From assembly GCA_963921275.4 (NCBI GenBank), contig OZ001293.3, positions 1,760,001 to 1,824,000 on the forward strand: 64,000 nucleotides of DNA. Direction: 5' to 3'. The DNA comes from an uncultured Hormoscilla sp. (GTDB lineage: Bacteria; Cyanobacteriota; Cyanobacteriia; Cyanobacteriales; Desertifilaceae). Below, piece by piece: positions 9,332-41,634 of this stretch. Both the position numbers and the translations under genes were made by a program. Below the pieces are notes generated by a model. The model worked only from the letters and a program-made list of their open reading frames with translations, did not search any database and was not told the origin of the DNA. Position 1 is the stretch's first letter. Every line of letters begins with the position of its first letter.

Positions 9332-9484
9332 AAATGAGTTTTCCTTTAATTCCTTATGCTATAATTAGTTGAAGATGTTATTAGTCGGTTTCAACCGAAT
9401 TCAGCTATTAGCAGGGGGTTTGAACCCCCTGCGGGCTAACAGCGAAGTGAACAGCAAAGTGAAGAGTTAAGGAGGTAGATAAGT

Positions 9485-12400
9485 ATGATCGCAGAAGATT
9501 TAGGACGCTTGTTCGAGGTGGGGTTCAATATTGGGATCCTCGCCTATATTCGCGAAAATAATCTGAAGAACAACTTCGATACATTATTTGAACGAGACCT
9601 GCAAGAGTTGCGCTTCCCCCAGATGCATCGGCGGATAGTCGATCGGGCAAAAATGGTGGATGCGTCCCATCGCCAGACGATATGCAAATGGAGTTTATTT
9701 TTCCTGCAAAAAGGGTTTCTTTGCGGTCTCAACTTCTTCCGGGAATACCTGGAAGCTGCGAAATGGGAATTAAAAAAGCTGGAGATTCTCTATTTCCAGT
9801 GCAATTTTCGCGGTGAAAACAGTCTGGGTACTTATCCCCAAAGTGAGGAAGAAGGATTTCACTCGCTTTTGTCTCAGTTGGGGAATGTCAAGGTGGATAT
9901 TGGTCGCTACCAGCAAAAAGGAGAATTTCTCAAAGCTGATACCCTGATGCTACTGCGTTGCCGCAAAAAGTTCCGCATCCTCTCGGTAGATTTGTCGGTG
10001 TTCTCGGTTAAGTCCGCAGAAGATATTCAGGATCTGGATAATGTGGAGATTTTACGGCGATACCTGCTGCGGGAGATCAAATATTTGCGATCGAAAAGCG
10101 TTTTCTCTCAACTGAGTATCGATACGGAAGACCTGGACTTCAAGTTTTCCCCGGACTTGGTCCGATATTTCACCGCTTTCAAAACTAAGGATAAAGAAAG
10201 TGCTAAATTGATTCAGGCGGGGAGTTATGCTTATAGCTTCTATCAGTTTTTGCTGTCTGCTAAGATTCTGCAAGCAACGGACCCCCTCACTTTGAACGTG
10301 TTCGGTTACAGCGATCGGGGAGTCAGCGCCATGTCCTTGCATCCCGATCAAATCGATATTTTACAAACCTGCGCCCACATCTACAAGCAGGAGAACAAGA
10401 AACAGGAGATCGACGACGCGCGGGATATTGTTTGGAGAAAGATTTCTCGGAATGCGACCAAGAGTTTTATCAATGGCCGGAAATTCATGCAGGACTTGTC
10501 TTCGGCATCAGGGAACGGAGTGACTCACATCACTCACCAGGAAAAGATTACCGATTTTTTCAATTCCATTGCCAACGTTCCGCCAGAGTTAATGGCCCAA
10601 GTGGGACTAACGGGAACGATGAATTTGCGAGATGCCCACGCTGCTTCGATCGGAAAAGCTTTGACTGCTAAGGAAAACTATCTGTTTTTAACGGGAAATC
10701 CCGGTATTGGCAAGACCACGGCCATTGTGGAATTTCTCAAGCAGCATATGGATGAAGGATTTTTGTTCTTATATATCAGTCCCCGCATCCAAGTTAACCG
10801 AGATATCATCGAGAAGTTCAAGCAGGGAGACCGGTTGTGTGACGATCGCCTGTTTTGCGTCAACAGCAATTCTGACATCATCAAGTCTAACATGGGACAT
10901 TGCACGGTCCAATACCAGACTAATTTAATTCAGGGAGAATTTACCGAAAAAGGAGTCCATTTTTTAGATAGCGATATGATTGGTCGGGAAAAATACAAGC
11001 TGCGACTCAAGCAGACAATGGAGGACTTAATTCAAGATGGCGGTCAGAGAACTCGGGGAGTCTTATCTAGTGTTTGTGATGCGATCGGGACAATGGTGGA
11101 ACGTGGCCTTTCCAATAACATTATCGCCACAGTTTCCGTACAGTCTTTTAAGAAAACCAGAAATGGCGATACTCTGAAACATTTCAATAAAATCTTCAGG
11201 AGTGTCTATAACGAGAGAGAAGGATCAGTTAATCCCGCCAAGATGCAAGCAATATCTCAGCGGATAAAGCACATGTTCGTTATGATTGATGAAATTACCG
11301 GAGACGACAGTGGGGTCGAGTTCTTCAGCGGCATTAGTCAACTGGCGGGAGACTATGAGTTAATGGATGGTACACATGGGTTTAATACTAAGATTATAGT
11401 TGCCGATGCCTCCATCGTCAACTCAGAGGTGATCCGTCAGCATATGGGCGATCGGGATGTAGCACCGGACAAAATCTTTTTCCGACCGGCATCAGGTCCA
11501 GGTTCCCCCCTCTCCGTGGAACCTTTTGATTATGGGGCGATCGCCCGCAATTTTGATTAATGCCAACTCCTATCCGGCCCAAAGTTTGGATATTACATAT
11601 AAAGTCTTCATCGAGTCCAGTAAATTTAAGGACTCGGAATTATATGACAAATCTGATGTGGTCGATCGGGTGCAAACAGAGATTATCGCAGACTTGAATG
11701 AGTTGCTGAATAGACCGAACGCGGGACAGATAATTGTCTACATCCAGGACAAGCAGCGGTTAAAGAACCTGACAGAGAAACTGAAAGAGGATCGCGGCCA
11801 ATTCGAGCAATTTGTAGATTACCTAGAAATTCACTCGAACATTTCCGAGTCCTATAAACAGGAACTGCAAAGGCACAAGAATGACGTGAAAGTAATCTTC
11901 ATGACTTCCTCAGCGAGTCGAGGACTATCCTTTCCCAAGACCAAGCATATCCTGGTAGACATTCCTCGGTTTCAAATTGAAAGGAACCTAATGGAAGTCA
12001 TCCAGGTAATTTATCGCGGTCGGGGAGAATACATTGAAAATGAGGAGAGGAAAACCCTGGATGGAGAAGATAAATACCTGACCTTTTACCTTTACGAACA
12101 AGCAATTTACTACGGGGAAGAACCCGAAAAAGAATTACGGGAGAGCAAATTAAGTTTAGCGAACATCCTGCTGATCTTGAAAACAGCAGTGATGACCCGG
12201 ATCGCAGGTGCAGGACAGATCGGCAAAAAACATTTTACGATCATCCCGATCGGGGGGAAGTCAGTATTTGCAGCGGGGGACACATTTTCCGGGAGTATGG
12301 CGGCGCTAATAGGGGAATTAAAGAGAGAACATATCCGCCGCCGCACTGATAAACTTTTGAATGAAGTGCATGGGAGTTTAAGGCAACTGCTGGCCCGGGC

Positions 12401-13106
12401 AAGATTTGTCTTGACTGATGCCGAAAAATCTGGTAATCCTAAAACGGTTGACTATCTATCGGTGCGGGAGTCATTGGGGAAAAGTTTTGAGAAATTGGCA
12501 AATAAAGGGTTTGATGGACTGCTGAAATTTGGTAATCTAGAAGCAGGACATATTAGTGGCAGTCTGTTGCTGGTCTCCCTGAAGGATAAAAATCTCCAAG
12601 AGAACTATGAGATCCGTCTAGAGCAAATATTCAAGCATGACGCCGATGATGAATTTTTAGACAAACTCCGTAAGGTCAGTAAAAGTCGTCATTATCCAGA
12701 GAGTCTGCGATCGGCCACCCGAGGGGCGATCGAGCTAGTCGAAAAACTTTTGGAAGGAAAGGAAAACAGGACACAGCGATACGAGCAGAACTCCGTGCGT
12801 ACCGATCAATATTATGCCTTACCGCTACTGACATTTATTAGCAGCGAGGCGATGGAGGATTATTTTGCCAACGGGATAGAGGAACCAGAAGGAAAGACAT
12901 TTCGAGAACTGCTATCTCTGTACGTGCGATCGCTGTACCCAGCGGACAACATGTTGCCGATCGGGTATAATTATGAAAAATTTCCCTTTGTGGTGTTCAG
13001 GAGCTATAGTTTAACTGAAATCAGGAATAAGTTGTTTACAGATAAACAGTTGCTGAATTCCCATGAGTTGAACGTGCTAAACTTGATTCTAGCTCAAGAT
13101 GAATAA
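9485..13106 (+). pseudogene. Nuclease-like/SF2 helicase fusion (~1200 aa) split by a single frameshift near 11535
   Basis: Walker A GNPGIGKTT and motif II DEITGD lie in ORF 9485-11560; motifs V (TSSASRGLSFP) and VI (QVIYRGRG) lie in ORF 11526-13106; removing one G from GGGG fuses them. Confidence 0.75.
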
Positions 13107-13147
13107 TAGGTGGGATCGTCGGTGTCCCCGGTCAAAGGAGGTAAACA

Positions 13148-13462
13148 ATGGAATGGAAAAGATATTACTTCAAGCTGGAGATGGAACAGTTACCAGAGCG
13201 AATTTGGACGCAGTTCAAATCTAGCGAGATTGTGCAGGAGATGAAGATGCAGTCAAAATCGGAAATAATTGAGTCGATCGACCAATTGCCAGAAGCAATT
13301 TTGGATAAAATGCGACATACTGTTGAAATGGTTTGGCGGGAATTTGACAAACAGTTAATGGTAACAAATCCAGGAAAGTTTGCCAATGCCATTCTCAGCG
13401 AGTCGTCTTTGGCAAAAGATTGGTTGTCGCCAGAAGAGGATGAAGCGTGGAAGGACTTGTAA
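13148..13462 (+). CDS. DUF2281-like antitoxin; no intact cognate toxin follows
   Basis: C-terminal LSESSLAKDWLSPEEDEAWKDL is typical of antitoxins preceding MazF/PemK toxins. Confidence 0.6.
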   Translation: MEWKRYYFKLEMEQLPERIWTQFKSSEIVQEMKMQSKSEIIESIDQLPEAILDKMRHTVEMVWREFDKQLMVTNPGKFANAILSESSLAKDWLSPEEDEAWKDL

Positions 13463-13559
13463 AGGAAGATCGCGATCGCACCTCTGCCGATCCGACCATT
13501 ATCAGAGAGGGGGCGATCGGGGCTATAATAAGATTAAAGTATATTGGGGAGGGTTAGCT

Positions 13560-13700
13560 ATGACTCAACTGGTGCTGCCAGACTTGAATCCGATCGCGAT
13601 CGCTGCGCGAAAAATCGAGAAATTGAAAGCACGAGCGAGGCGACATGGATGTTCTCTGATCGTTAATATATTATATCAAGTCCAGTTAATTAATTATTAA
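13560..13700 (+). pseudogene. FitA/Arc-like antitoxin fragment
   Basis: MTQLVLPDLNP..IEKLKARARRHGCSL with a short insert at a HIP1 site. Confidence 0.45.
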
Positions 13701-13753
13701 TAGTATGTTGGGTTACGCTGCGCTTAACCCAACATAAATCTTAGAAGCGGTTA

Positions 13754-14083
13754 CTATGGATCTGGAGTAAGTTTTGGAGGCTCTGGAGCAGGAGGTTGAG
13801 GATGTTTTCCGGCATAGTATATAACCACCTTGCGCTGTTCTGCGTCAGGCACATAAAAAACTCTGTCTCCTTTTGTTACCTTATATTCCCAGGCTCCCTT
13901 GTAATTTTTCCCCTTCATTGGAAAAATCTTCTTCGGCTTTCTTTGCATCGGAGTATTACACAAATACTCATAGCACTCACGAGCATTTTCTGGTTCCCGT
14001 GACTGTAATTCTTCCCAGTCTTTATTTACCCGTTTGTTCTTTGCGACCACTAGCCAAGGCGATTCAGTGTCTTGTACTTCCAT
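13754..14083 (-). CDS. RelE/ParE superfamily toxin
   Basis: Basic 109-aa protein with MKGKNYKGAWEYKVTKGDRVFY..VVIYYAGKH, downstream of acidic partners. Confidence 0.65.
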   Translation of the reverse strand: MEVQDTESPWLVVAKNKRVNKDWEELQSREPENARECYEYLCNTPMQRKPKKIFPMKGKNYKGAWEYKVTKGDRVFYVPDAEQRKVVIYYAGKHPQPPAPEPPKLTPDP

Positions 14084-14214
14084 TCCATTTCTTTTTCTGG
14101 CGGGGCAACCTGCGAGGATGGCTATAAAGTTGTTTCATTTTCTTCAGCAGGTTTATATTGTGAAGGATTTTGTGATGCCGCCAGTTTTTTTCTGACGGCA
14201 CTACACTCTCAGAA

Positions 14215-14658
14215 TCATACGTCTTCAGCCTCTTTAGCCGCCGGTTTAGTTAGCATCACTTCTTCTTCAAACTCATTACTCAAGAAAGCCTCAGCTAGTT
14301 CTGGACTTTCAATTGCGATCGCACTTTCGTGCCACTCATATATGACTGCATCCAGCTCATCCAAAGCATCTGGTTGGGATAGCGCCTCTTGGGTCTCTTC
14401 GAGCAGATCTGCTAATTCTTCAGAGTCAAATACCCTCAACCATCCGTAGGGATGATCGGCACTAATCTCCTCTCCTGAACGCAATTGCTCTACAATGCCG
14501 ATCGGGCTGCTCAGATCATTCGCTTTATTCGCTTTATTCGCTTTTCTTGTCTCTTGGCTCTTGACTGACCAATTTGCTGTTGCTGGAGAGCCAGGCACCA
14601 AGGTAGCGCAGTTAGGGGACATCAGCATATAATTCACTTCCTCCCGGTATCGACTCAT
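14215..14658 (-). CDS. Putative antitoxin, paralog 2
   Basis: Acidic protein, HPYGWLRVFDSEELA..EWHESAIAIESPEL. Confidence 0.6.
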   Translation of the reverse strand: MSRYREEVNYMLMSPNCATLVPGSPATANWSVKSQETRKANKANKANDLSSPIGIVEQLRSGEEISADHPYGWLRVFDSEELADLLEETQEALSQPDALDELDAVIYEWHESAIAIESPELAEAFLSNEFEEEVMLTKPAAKEAEDV

Positions 14659-14689
14659 CTATTACAACTCTTTACCTATATACTTCTTG

Positions 14690-15079
14690 CTAAAATCCAG
14701 CACTCCCGTTATTTTCCGGTTTCGTTAGCACCACTTCTTCTTCAAATTCATTGGTAAAGAAAGCCTCAGTCAATTCTGGACTTTCAATTGCGATCGCACT
14801 TTCGTGCCACTCATATATTACTGCGTCCAACTCATCCACATTCGCTTCCGAAATCGCCTCTTTCGTCTCTGCAATCAGTTCGGCTAATTCTTCAGAATCA
14901 AATCCTCTCAGCCATCCGAAGGGATGGTCGGAACTAATCTTCTCTCCTGAACCCAATTGATTAGCAATTGCGATCAGTTCCTTCGCTTTTCTTGTCTCTT
15001 CCTCTTTTACTGGCCATTTTCCCAGATTTCTACGTTGCAAAATCTGGCTATTAGAAGGGGACATTACCATATAGTTCAC
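14690..15079 (-). CDS. Putative antitoxin, paralog 1
   Basis: Clear paralog of 14215-14658. Confidence 0.6.
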   Translation of the reverse strand: MNYMVMSPSNSQILQRRNLGKWPVKEEETRKAKELIAIANQLGSGEKISSDHPFGWLRGFDSEELAELIAETKEAISEANVDELDAVIYEWHESAIAIESPELTEAFFTNEFEEEVVLTKPENNGSAGF

Positions 15080-15396
15080 TCCATTAGCTGGGGGAACAGC
15101 TAGGGGTATTTGACATCGAACTCAATTAAGTGGAGCTGGGCAGAATCGAACTGCCGTCCGCATCAGTTATTGACTTTCCGATCGTTCACAGGCTTAGCCC
15201 TTCTAACCCTCGGGGCGGGAACCATCCATTATCCCGGATGACAGGATGCTCTGGTGAGTTCTTTGCTAGTTAGTCTACCAGAGACAACCGACTAGCGCAT
15301 CCGTTGGGGTTTTGTCCGCAGCCCTTAACGGAGTCAGACTACAGACGCTCGAACCTATATGAGGTGTTTAGGCAACCGCAGCTGCTTTACGAGCAA

Positions 15397-17698
15397 GTTA
15401 GCTAGATAGGCGCATTACTGCACGTACCCGCCTCCAGAACCGGACTTGAAACTTTCGCCTCATCCGGCTCCTCGTTCTGGATGGTGCTTCCACCTCGGCT
15501 ATGGTGGTCTTGATGACAGTACCTATGTACCATCGCCAGGTTACTGCGCTTGTTATTCCGGTGGTTCCCGTCGATGTGGTGTAGTTCCAGGTCTTGTCCC
15601 GTGAAAATTACCTCTCCACAGAGCGAGCAACATCCCTTCTGAAAACCTACAAGCTTTTGCCTCAGATCTTCATGGGAGGGGTCATGTTTGCCCCTTTTGC
15701 TCCAGTAAACCCAGTCTCCATCGAACGGGGATTTTTCCCCTCTTACTTTCTCGTGTACTCGACTAGAAAAGTCGGTGTACTTGGGGAGAGTCACCAGATT
15801 GCCATTTTGGTCGTATCCGCCGTACCTCCAACCTTGTTCCGTCTTATGCCAATAACGCTTCCATTGGGTATCGAGTGATTGCTTACCACAGTCCCGTTTA
15901 GTTAGTGATAGCAGCCGATAGTATAGGGTTTCATCCAGTGAATTGAATGCTTCATAGCTACCATTTCCCCATCGGAAGTATTGCGCCCATTCCCGCATTA
16001 TTGGCTTGAGTCTGGATACAATGCTCAAGGTTCTCTTATCCTTGACCATCCTAGAGGCAATTGTTAACTCATGCTTGAGCTTGGTCTTTTGCTTTTTGAC
16101 GGCATCTTCACTCGGACCGGTTATCAGTCGGTGTCCCAGATGTTTTCCGTCCGGTTTTCTGGCCCCTCTATGTTTACCTCTCTCCTTTTGGATGAAGTTG
16201 TATCCCAGAAAGTCAAACCCCGGTTCTTCTCCATCTGTTTGGACTTTGGTATTACATATGCGGGTTTTCTCCTCGGAGAGCTTGAGACCAATAGCTTCTA
16301 GGAATTGCTCGACCACCGTCTTGGCCTGTTGGACTTTCTCCAGTTCGTCATGAATCACGACAAAGCCGTCTGCATACTGGATTAACACAATCCCAGCTGT
16401 TTTGCTTCCGTCTTTGTTGCTTTTCGACTGCGGCTGGATGCGGTTTACTTCTGTTTCCAGGCCCTGTAGGGCAATGTTTGCTAGCAGCGGACCTATGACT
16501 CCCGATTCTGGGGTGTCTTTGTCCCTTTGCGGAAAGACATTGCCTTTCATTACCCCCGCCTTCAGCCAGGCTTTTATCTGTCTCCTCATGATGCTGAACG
16601 TATTCAGCTTATTCAGGAGTTGTTCGTGGTCGAGCCGGTCAAAACCAGCGATTTCGGCGTCCAGGACATATTTAGGTTTGTACCTCAGTCGGATTCTAAT
16701 CCCTTCTATAGCATCTATAGCGCTCTTCCCGGGTCTGAATCCATAGCTGTTAGGTTCAAAGAAGGCTTCCCATTCTGGTTCTAGGGCAATTTTGGCTAGC
16801 GCCTGTTTGGCCCTGTCCTCAATTGTGGGGATGCCTAACGGTAGCCCTTTCTCGGAATCTGGTTTGGGTATGCAGACTCTTTTTAATGGAGAGGCTTTAC
16901 CGTCTATCTCTAGCCTTTCTGCTAGGGCTAACCTTTCAGAGGGCTTCAGGCAAATAATTCCATCCACTCCCAGAGTTTTGGCTCCCGTATTGTCCTGGGT
17001 GACCATTCTGGTGGCCAGCAGTTTGGCGCTTCTAGACCTGATGACTAACTTTTGCAGGTTTTTCACCCTGTCGAAGTCGCCCTCTTTAGCCGCTTTGTAG
17101 ATTCGCTTTTGGATGCGGAAGACTTCTGTCCGAACTTTCGTCCAGTCTAGATACCCCCAGGTTACCTTTGCGGTTTTAACCTCTGACATCTTTCTGGGCT
17201 GTCTCTACTCTTCCAGACCGACGGCCTTTCAGCGTATCCCCAGAGTTACCCGAGGCATTTGCTTGGTGACCGTATCCTTCACTGTCCTACCGCAGGTTTG
17301 GAACTCTGCCCGTTTCCGGTTGAGGTACTTCAGCTTCCCTAGCTTCATCGTTCTCCATTGGCTGTGGGTTTAGGTCTCCAGTTTGCGCCGGTGGATGAGG
17401 TGCCTCCGCTCGGTACCATATCCTCACGGTCTTACCACACGTCCCTGTTTTGGACTCCGGGGTATCAACCCTGTTTTCCCCGTTAACATTTGACGACGCT
17501 TCTCGATACTGGATTCACTGTCCGTTAACCATGCCCACTTGCGCATGTATCTTGATTCTGGGTGGGTTCCCGTCCTCTTGTTTCTTTTCCCTGCTTCGCT
17601 CCCTGGTTTACCATCCCAGGATGCGGGGATGCGCTGTCCCTCCGGCACTGAGAGGAGTAGGACTCTAACCTACATGGAGTACGACTATCTAGTCGCAC
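15397..17698 (-). mobile_element. Group II intron (2302 nt) inserted in the tmRNA tag frame
   Basis: Starts GTGCGAC; DV GAGCCGGATGAGGCGAAAGTTTCAAGTCCGGTTCTG; ends ...CTAGCTAAC; encodes an RT/maturase. Confidence 0.95.
15402..17189 (-). CDS. ltrA: Group II intron-encoded protein (RVT_N, degenerate RT, X/maturase, HNH)
   Basis: PLGIPTIEDRAKQAL, FEPNSYGFRPGKS, YADG in place of YADD, C-terminal CSLC..HHIDG..N..H..CH. Confidence 0.92.
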   Translation of the reverse strand: MSEVKTAKVTWGYLDWTKVRTEVFRIQKRIYKAAKEGDFDRVKNLQKLVIRSRSAKLLATRMVTQDNTGAKTLGVDGIICLKPSERLALAERLEIDGKASPLKRVCIPKPDSEKGLPLGIPTIEDRAKQALAKIALEPEWEAFFEPNSYGFRPGKSAIDAIEGIRIRLRYKPKYVLDAEIAGFDRLDHEQLLNKLNTFSIMRRQIKAWLKAGVMKGNVFPQRDKDTPESGVIGPLLANIALQGLETEVNRIQPQSKSNKDGSKTAGIVLIQYADGFVVIHDELEKVQQAKTVVEQFLEAIGLKLSEEKTRICNTKVQTDGEEPGFDFLGYNFIQKERGKHRGARKPDGKHLGHRLITGPSEDAVKKQKTKLKHELTIASRMVKDKRTLSIVSRLKPIMREWAQYFRWGNGSYEAFNSLDETLYYRLLSLTKRDCGKQSLDTQWKRYWHKTEQGWRYGGYDQNGNLVTLPKYTDFSSRVHEKVRGEKSPFDGDWVYWSKRGKHDPSHEDLRQKLVGFQKGCCSLCGEVIFTGQDLELHHIDGNHRNNKRSNLAMVHRYCHQDHHSRGGSTIQNEEPDEAKVSSPVLEAGTCSNAPI

Positions 17699-18138
17699 AA
17701 GGAACAATGTTGTTCGCAGTTACATTTTTATTTGAGCCGATATTTACGAGAGGAGACTCACTCTCGACCTGAATCACGGAGCAGTTTTCGCTAACACGTC
17801 GAAACCATTGCAGCCCCATGTCTTACATCTCCCATTCTGGCTTATATCTTTGCAACTGTCAAGGGGTAATTACGTAAATTTTGCGATTTCTGCCATTTTT
17901 TTTGCATTGAGGAACTGCAACTGCTGGTACAGCATGGCGATCCGGGGCCAATCAGCACCGGCACTGGTGGCCGCCCGTAAGGGGTTGCCAAAGATTGCCT
18001 CGACTTCCAGTGGCTTGCCTCGGTTGGGGAAAGGGAACAGGGAACAGGGAACAGGGGGGGATCGTTTAGAGCCGAACAACATCTCCAGATGCCTTATTTT
18101 TGGTGCTCCCCCAAAGCTTGGATGCGTCCTGAGTTCAC

Positions 18139-39445: not shown

Positions 39446-41634
<2,189 letters not shown>

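Follow-up and report, generated by a model that had tools for sequence, protein, structure and literature searches.

A group II intron encoding a reverse-transcriptase-degenerate protein splits the only tmRNA gene of an uncultured Hormoscilla

How does a bacterium make its only transfer-messenger RNA (tmRNA) when a group II intron interrupts the gene and the protein encoded by that intron appears to have given up reverse transcription? This question is raised by a 64,000-nucleotide stretch of contig OZ001293.3 (assembly GCA_963921275.4, positions 1,760,001 to 1,824,000; hereafter the window) from an uncultured Hormoscilla sp., whose genome spans 7.03 Mb in 7 contigs and is 96.7% complete. Bacterial group II introns are normally selfish retroelements that are excluded from essential genes, and the retention of proteins without reverse transcriptase (RT) function as splicing factors is a hallmark of organelles. 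In this genome the sole tmRNA gene, ssrA, is split by a group II intron; its anatomy, the losses in the RT motifs of the intron-encoded protein and the single-copy state are established here. We infer that RT activity has been lost and that splicing depends on the 595-aa intron protein, and we consider it likely that this RT-dead protein has been retained as a maturase that removes its own intron from the sole ssrA.

The coordinates of gene, intron and protein are collected in Table 1. When 17699 is joined to 15396 in silico, ARAGORN returns a standard 386-nt tmRNA with the tag ANNIVPFARKAAAVA*. The acceptor 5' half lies in the 5' exon together with the opening 19 nt of the tag frame, which starts at the resume codon (17717-17715); the 3' exon supplies the remaining tag frame (stop 15370-15368), the pseudoknots and the tRNA-like 3' half, which places the intron inside the tag reading frame. 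On genomic DNA, the Rfam tmRNA model RF00023 finds only two half-matches, 17817-17507 (32.3 bits) and 15465-15128 (25.1 bits), both below the cut-off of 47 and both extending into intron sequence; the uninterrupted ssrA of one congener (contig L032) scores 125.6 bits with the same model. No second ssrA was found in the 7.03-Mb genome, where the remaining RF00023 matches are all tRNA-sized, and an SmpB free of stops is present (216.6 bits). With a single ssrA copy and SmpB retained, splicing is required in every cell, which bears out the premise of the initial annotation that the host RNA is needed. Run on the unspliced window, ARAGORN reports a different tmRNA (15130-15471, minus strand, tag AADKTPTDALVGCLW*), which we rejected as an artefact in which domain V of the intron is taken as the 5' half. 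Between this false gene and the sub-cut-off Rfam scores, automatic annotation would mis-call or miss the split ssrA.

The insert has the features of a group II intron. It begins with GTGCG (17698-17694) and ends with AC (15398-15397), fitting the 5' GUGYG and 3' AY termini, and the breakpoint relative to the uninterrupted ssrA of the congeners coincides with its boundaries. Its domain V hairpin, with AGC triad and 2-nt bulge, exceeds the cut-offs of both group II models, RF00029 (40 bits) and RF04357 (53 bits), and scores highest among the four domain V matches in the window. From the Rfam alignment, the putative unpaired branch-point A would be 15403, within the codon that ends the intron's open reading frame (ORF; stop at 15404-15402) and 7 nt from the 3' splice site. 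The candidate exon-binding sites EBS2 and EBS1 would pair with exon positions -13 to -8 and -6 to -1, respectively, the matching intron-binding sites (IBS) lying in the 5' exon; when the intron's first 509 nt are folded by minimum free energy, the candidate EBS1 falls within a hairpin loop of the predicted structure, and these pairings compete with several other 5-6 nt matches and carry no covariation support. Leads only point to a chloroplast-like (CL, IIB-type) intron: the best solved-structure match of the protein is the TeI4h protein, domain V matches plastid ndhA/ndhB models, and the close homologues are all cyanobacterial.

Splicing was assessed by mapping the contigs, rather than the raw reads, of four public runs to the locus. 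In RNA run X3, one contig (depth 10668) joins 15396 to 17699, skipping 2302 nt with GT..AC ends, which is the predicted splice. RNA run X1 has a contig of exon 2, at depth 1955 and with 1 difference in 241 letters, whose match halts at 15396 and which runs 12 letters further, and intron contigs 97-99% identical to the window occur at depth 8-19. In run X15, presumed to be DNA, a 2940-nt contig identical to window positions 15100-17728 contains both junctions and no joint. Splicing of the ssrA intron in vivo is supported by these contigs and only partly seen. Four further joints (15312->17702, 15356->17707 and 15369->17742 in run X5, and 15350->17741 in X3), whose sides of 22-28 letters were mapped at 90% likeness, were rejected as tmRNAs of other organisms and not splice forms.

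The protein encoded by this intron matches the TeI4h protein (6ME0 chain C) over residues 7-568 with an E value of 3.4e-75. Its motifs were read from a 15-sequence alignment (14 homologues), a 24-sequence alignment and the solved TeI4h protein. RT3 reads DAEIAG-FD where the relatives have DADIxKCFD, such that the catalytic Asp is replaced by Glu and one residue is deleted; RT4 reads DTPESGVIGP against GTPQGGVISP (PQG to PES); and RT5 reads IQYADG against IRYADD. The three lesions together were found in none of the 14 aligned relatives. With TIGR04416, the NCBIfam equivalog model for group II intron RT/maturases, the protein scores 244 bits, below the cut-off of 300, and its allele described below scores 243.9, compared with 306-340 for five relatives with intact motifs. 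It departs from the consensus at 26 of 159 columns that are at least 90% conserved, the most of any sequence (median 3 in 118 homologues). Departures unique to it comprise 12 of 99 columns in RT, 3 of 10 in X, 1 of 32 in the N-terminus and none of 23 in the D/En (endonuclease) part. As judged from these alignments, the damage lies mainly at the catalytic positions of an otherwise kept RT scaffold, with the endonuclease part apparently untouched. Since all three RT active-site motifs are damaged, the protein is very probably unable to polymerise DNA, and the ssrA intron would therefore be unable to retrohome alone and is present as one copy.

What the initial annotation observed in this ORF is confirmed. 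The 595 codons run without interruption from 17189 to 15402, and the alignments confirm its readings of all three altered motifs (YADG, DTPESG and DAEIAGFD). Of the N-terminal, X and HNH regions, which looked preserved to it, all are matched by domain models, the HNH match falling just below the cut-off; D/En has lost no conserved column and X is changed at 3 of 10. The HNH CxxC, HH, N and C-H residues align with those of the relatives and 6ME0_C, and the nuclease is predicted only. The ORF indeed crosses domain V (15473-15433) and stops in domain VI, but the ORF match overlaps domain V in 6 of 6 paralogous loci checked; this arrangement is a family trait and says nothing about domestication.

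The proposed loss of mobility is supported by the altered catalytic residues and by the copy number. Of 152 RT matches elsewhere in the genome, the closest paralogue reaches 46% identity; blastn with the ribozyme's first 509 nt finds nothing further in the 7.03 Mb, and elsewhere only domain V and the RT core give weak matches. By comparison, blastn finds 534-702 matches in the genome for the three ORF-less introns in the window, one of which splits the enolase gene; for two of the three, the copies listed are 99.7-100% identical. Matches in such numbers, many of them 99-100% identical, imply that retromobility is active in this cell, though not that of the ssrA intron. The suggestion that the ssrA-intron protein also assists these ORF-less introns in trans has no support, as they are unrelated, recently copied families that share with the ssrA intron only 36 nt of domain V, and their copies need an active RT.

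The ssrA intron is confined to a single species-level lineage. A search for the same-site intron junction gave none among the order's other genomes (0 of 400, or 1 of 401 when its own genome is included). The insertion site is identical in three of the four congeners, two congeners match a flanking coding stretch (13000-13509) at 97% identity, and the exon differences to congeners are few and do not cluster at the insertion site. Across the order, ssrA exceeds the Rfam cut-off in 143 of 151 genomes; the other eight comprise four that are only 61-87% complete, two with contig breaks (G149 and G098, rejected as intron cases because their contigs end inside ssrA) and two with introns, namely this genome and G028. 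In G028, an 841-nt ORF-less group II intron (contig L044, 1792-2632, minus strand) interrupts ssrA 5 nt before the resume codon and 24 nt further upstream than the intron described here; its removal in silico restores the same tag peptide, ANNIVPFARKAAAVA. The G028 intron belongs to a family with five full-length copies at 84-85% in its genome and ~35 more matches at 72-77%, and is a separate invasion of ssrA. The RT-dead state is young: its lesions are common to the alleles seen, but the intron is restricted to one species-level lineage. The intron either entered in this species' lineage or is older and was lost from the congeners, histories that these data do not distinguish. Domestication over the long term, as in organellar maturases, is not supported, given the absence of the intron from all four congeners and from the 400 other genomes of the order.

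Among 5.8 billion proteins, the nearest relatives outside the protein's own cluster are P0002-P0006 (55-59% identical; all others at most 47%), which are uncultured marine or metagenomic cyanobacterial proteins, including proteins from metagenome-assembled genomes; P0002-P0005 are counted as its sister clade. Canonical motifs are kept in most of the five. In the P0003 cluster, however, YADN stands in three of four proteins (P0003, P0270 and P0272) whereas P0271 keeps YADD, and in P0005 an Asn replaces the RT3 Asp; the frames of P0003, P0270, P0272 and P0005 are open, and the TIGR04416 scores of P0003 and P0005 are 298 and 274. A possible, if doubtful, interpretation is that P0002-P0006 and the ssrA-intron protein form a clade of resident, splicing-only introns in which the RT site would have been lost repeatedly. 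A metagenome contig search with P0001 gave five loci, the best 59% identical over a fragment and none of the sister clade, and a genome contig search with P0271 gave 79 loci, the best 52% identical, with the sister clade not among the species representatives reached. Shorter proteins gave 1477 matches, with no near-identical fragment of the ssrA-intron protein among the 120 listed.

The alleles of the protein provide a measure of what has happened since the RT lesions arose. Also in the protein's 90% cluster is P0268, a 602-aa protein from environmental contigs, which shares DAEIAG-FD and QYADG; its RT4 reads KGTPQLGVISP (GTPQLG), with a 7-aa insertion just upstream. Within residues 215-233 the two proteins differ by 8 substitutions and this 7-aa insertion, whereas the remaining ~576 residues have only 9-10 substitutions. 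The RT lesions predate the split of the alleles seen. Insertions among the alleles measure 3 nt (X1 and X3), 15 nt (X3 and X5) and 21 nt (P0268), all in frame, and no stop or frameshift was found among the five allele forms (window, X1, X3, X5 and P0268). The 29 listed single-letter differences in the ORF correspond to 25 changed codons, 15 synonymous and 10 non-synonymous, where 22-28% synonymous is expected at random (binomial p 5e-5 to 9e-4). The listed differences give 2 synonymous and 3 non-synonymous codons in residues 1-335, 5 and 2 in residues 336-470, 8 and 4 in residues 471-575, and 0 and 1 in the ORF tail; with 64 more differences outside the list and most of those counted in the C-terminal half, these values bear on selection on the ORF and cannot rank domains or measure selection on the RT domain. 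With this synonymous excess and only in-frame indels, the ORF looks selected, i.e. under purifying selection after RT loss, in agreement with the initial annotation.

These data suggest the following sequence of events. The intron would have entered ssrA by retrohoming at a site fitting its EBS sequences, and the RT catalytic residues would then have been lost before the present alleles diverged. The protein may bind its own intron RNA as a maturase, via the conserved RT fingers/palm scaffold and the X domain, and promote lariat splicing at 17699|17698 and 15397|15396. The need for splicing would hold the frame open under purifying selection, leaving the RT4 region free to vary or decay after the death of RT. 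That the protein is a splicing helper is argued by the frame, which is open and evolving synonymously.

Several points weigh against a retained maturase, among them the limited reach of the codon counts. In a maximum-likelihood tree with fixed topology, the path length from the common ancestor is 0.41 compared with 0.38-0.52 in the sister clade, and 0.38 compared with 0.42-0.53 for the RT part, so the lineage shows no rate acceleration; a general relaxation of the RT domain was rejected on the same grounds, there being only active-site hits. The loss of 3 of 10 conserved columns in X and none of 23 in D/En is the reverse of a simple maturase-only expectation, and the kept HNH region is a feature that a maturase-only account leaves unexplained, possibly because too little time has passed, because the region has a structural role or because the nuclease still works. 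Glu for Asp together with YADG might leave trace polymerase activity, and TeI4h with its YAGD lesion still moved at 48 C according to the available part of that study (PMC2882425). On the splicing side, 7 of 98 exon letters differ in the X3 joint contig, which may be the ssrA of an intron-less relative; the continuation of the X1 exon-2 contig is just 12 letters, of which the first 9 match the 5' exon end; and contig depths sum over other organisms and are a poor measure, with DNA possible in the RNA libraries. Finally, all 4 congeners carry an uninterrupted ssrA, with exons that are 93-98% identical to those here.

Some of these points would equally suit a decaying relic, in which RT is recently dead, the ORF is becoming a pseudogene that would still be open for want of time, and splicing is self-catalysed or helped by host factors or other intron proteins. 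The limitation of the intron to one species-level lineage, the lack of an overall rate change relative to the sister clade and the visible decay of the RT4 region between alleles all fit such a relic, and among the 152 RT matches many intact intron proteins could in principle help. However, those other intron proteins are at most 46% identical and the ribozyme is without relatives in the genome, the synonymous excess amounts to 15 of 25 codons against 22-28% expected, three independent indels are all multiples of 3, and the shared lesions are older than the allele split, yet five allele forms lack a stop or frameshift. We therefore regard decay as unlikely. Less probable again is an element that is dead as an RT and alive as an HNH nuclease, which would nick or cut empty ssrA sites and, aided by reverse splicing, spread between chromosome copies or to incoming DNA via double-strand-break repair with no need for reverse transcription; homing of this kind, independent of RT, is known from yeast mitochondrial introns. 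Such homing would explain the conserved D/En, where 23 of 23 conserved columns are kept, the HNH residues are in place and residues 471-575 show 8 synonymous against 4 non-synonymous codons among the listed differences, and the empty site, identical in three congeners, is still a potential target. Yet the congener sites are empty, the few and unclustered exon differences give no co-conversion signal at the insertion site, and D/En conservation may reflect too little time or a structural role. That the protein is still a weak working RT and the intron an ordinary mobile element sitting in ssrA is very improbable, for although TeI4h with YAGD kept low mobility (PMC2882425, in the part available) and the HNH and D regions here are intact, three metal- or deoxynucleotide-binding motifs are all damaged at once, and there is no second copy or fragment in 7.03 Mb against hundreds for other intron families in the same genome. 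We favour a maturase retained for the splicing of ssrA.

Other features of the window and of the congeners concern the surroundings of ssrA and the mobile introns. Directly downstream of ssrA, the stretch 13658-15086 contains a 109-aa ORF and a pair of paralogous small ORFs (14215-14658 and 14690-15079), none of the three with a Pfam match; it does not align with the congeners, where the gap measures ~630 nt against ~1430 nt here, and may represent an island or indel where ssrA ends (3' side). In congener G002 (contig L032), the region upstream of ssrA and the first ~50 nt of the gene are present as a tandem partial duplicate, with L032 883-1136 and 1182-1504 both matching window positions 18022-17769. 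An ORF-less group II intron of ~875 nt is present twice, at 7663-~8538 and 32178-~33050 (both minus strand); the 534-543 genome matches of its family, with listed copies at 99.7-100% identity, point to a very recent mass proliferation needing an active RT somewhere in the genome. The enolase gene is also split, by an ORF-less group II intron of ~900 nt (40238-41136, plus strand) that begins with GTGCG at 40238, has its domain V/VI at 41058-41136 and is 99.3% identical to a copy elsewhere in the genome; positions 39446-40255 encode Enolase_N and the start of Enolase_C, and positions 41020-41631 encode what remains of Enolase_C. Elsewhere in the window, two long plus-strand ORFs (9479-11557 and 11526-13106) with nSTAND3 NTPase and Helicase_C matches overlap by ~30 nt in different frames, and may be a single gene broken by a frameshift.

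Table 1. Positions in the window of the split ssrA gene, its intron and the intron-encoded protein
Feature	Positions	Strand	Basis
ssrA (tmRNA) gene including intron	15130..17817	-	Rfam RF00023 half-matches; ARAGORN on in silico joined exons
5' exon of tmRNA	17699..17817	-	sequence; blastn to congeners; pairing search
3' exon of tmRNA	15130..15396	-	sequence; congener comparison; ARAGORN on joined exons
Group II intron, 2302 nt	15397..17698	-	sequence; RNA contig joint; congener breakpoint
IBS2; IBS1	17711-17706; 17704-17699	-	in 5' exon; pairing search
Candidate EBS2 AAUGUU, intron 209-214	17485..17490	-	predicted; perfect 6-nt complement of IBS2
Candidate EBS1 AGGGAA, intron 359-364	17335..17340	-	predicted; pairs with last 6 nt of 5' exon, one G-U
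Intron-encoded protein ORF, 595 aa, uninterrupted	15402..17189	-	ORF reading; Pfam
RVT_N, residues 11-93		-	Pfam
RVT_1, residues 107-332		-	Pfam
RT3 motif DAEIAG-FD, residues 177-184	16638..16661	-	alignments
RT4 motif DTPESG, residues 225-230	16500..16517	-	alignments; GTPQGG replaced
RT5 motif YADG, residues 272-275	16365..16376	-	alignments; YADD replaced
X / maturase region (GIIM, PF08388), residues 380-447	15849..16052	-	26.4 bits, cut-off 23
HNH region (PF01844), residues 521-565	15495..15629	-	21.1 bits, just under cut-off 21.4
Ribozyme domain V, translated in frame as ORF tail	15433..15473	-	RF04357 56.7 bits; RF00029 57.4 bits
Ribozyme domain VI	15397..15432	-	Rfam alignment

These results make the transition from retroelement to maturase observable at population scale in a free-standing bacterial genome, with catalytic losses shared between alleles, one RT motif decaying between them and the frame staying open. 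For tmRNA biology they add a form of the gene that makes ribosome rescue dependent on the splicing of a group II intron. A literature search at the level of titles found no report of a group II intron in tmRNA. The available part of the 2025 tmRNA database paper describes standard, permuted and group I intron forms only, states that tmRNA introns outside the T-loop may have been missed and counts 33,537 genomes without a tmRNA assignment, some of which might hide a split ssrA (PMC11915505). Should the tentative clade of splicing-only introns prove real and its members have essential RNA hosts, they would represent the first known bacterial case of a lineage passing from retroelement to maturase, a transition so far known from organelles, and the group II-split ssrA would be a fourth tmRNA gene form.

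Among tmRNA genes, those with group I introns in the T-loop resemble ours in that self-splicing is needed for tmRNA maturation, whereas here a group II intron occupies the mRNA-like part. The G028 ssrA is closer, being of the same order and interrupted in the same gene within the single-stranded mRNA-like stretch, but its intron is short and ORF-less (841 nt), lies 24 nt upstream and belongs to a multi-copy family. As an intron with a damaged protein, TeI4h of Thermosynechococcus elongatus is the nearest precedent. It shares a natural lesion of the YADD box (YAGD) and a single-copy RNA gene as host, tRNA-Ile(CAU), and the available part of its description gives a mobility of 2.5e-5% compared with 3.4% when YADD is restored, a ~100,000-fold cut at 37 C (PMC2882425). 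It differs in having one active-site lesion, mobility at high temperature and a 28-copy family; the ssrA intron has three damaged motifs, is a singleton and interrupts its host tmRNA inside the tag frame.

The organellar maturases (MatK in trnK, MatR and nMat) have likewise lost RT residues and kept X and function in splicing only, and MatK shares an intron in an essential RNA gene, as far as the available text of the review by Zimmerly and Semper goes (PMC4424553). They differ in being ancient and vertically inherited, in having lost En and, for MatK, in serving several introns, whereas the ssrA-intron protein occurs in a single species-level lineage, still carries HNH and lacks related introns that it could serve. 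In bacteria, degenerate intron proteins are rare, and the same text, of 2015, gives O.i.I2 in radC of Oceanobacillus iheyensis, a protein without YADD and other RT motifs but with no stops, as the only known bacterial example of what is read as a retained maturase (PMC4424553). O.i.I2 and the ssrA-intron protein are both bacterial intron proteins that have lost RT motifs and kept an open frame. O.i.I2 is of the ML (mitochondrial-like) class, from Firmicutes and in a protein-coding host, with no population evidence cited in that text (PMC4424553); in the ssrA-intron protein, by contrast, most of the RT scaffold is preserved and the losses are confined to catalytic positions. What is new here is an RT-degenerate bacterial intron protein that is located in tmRNA and comes with allele-level evidence.

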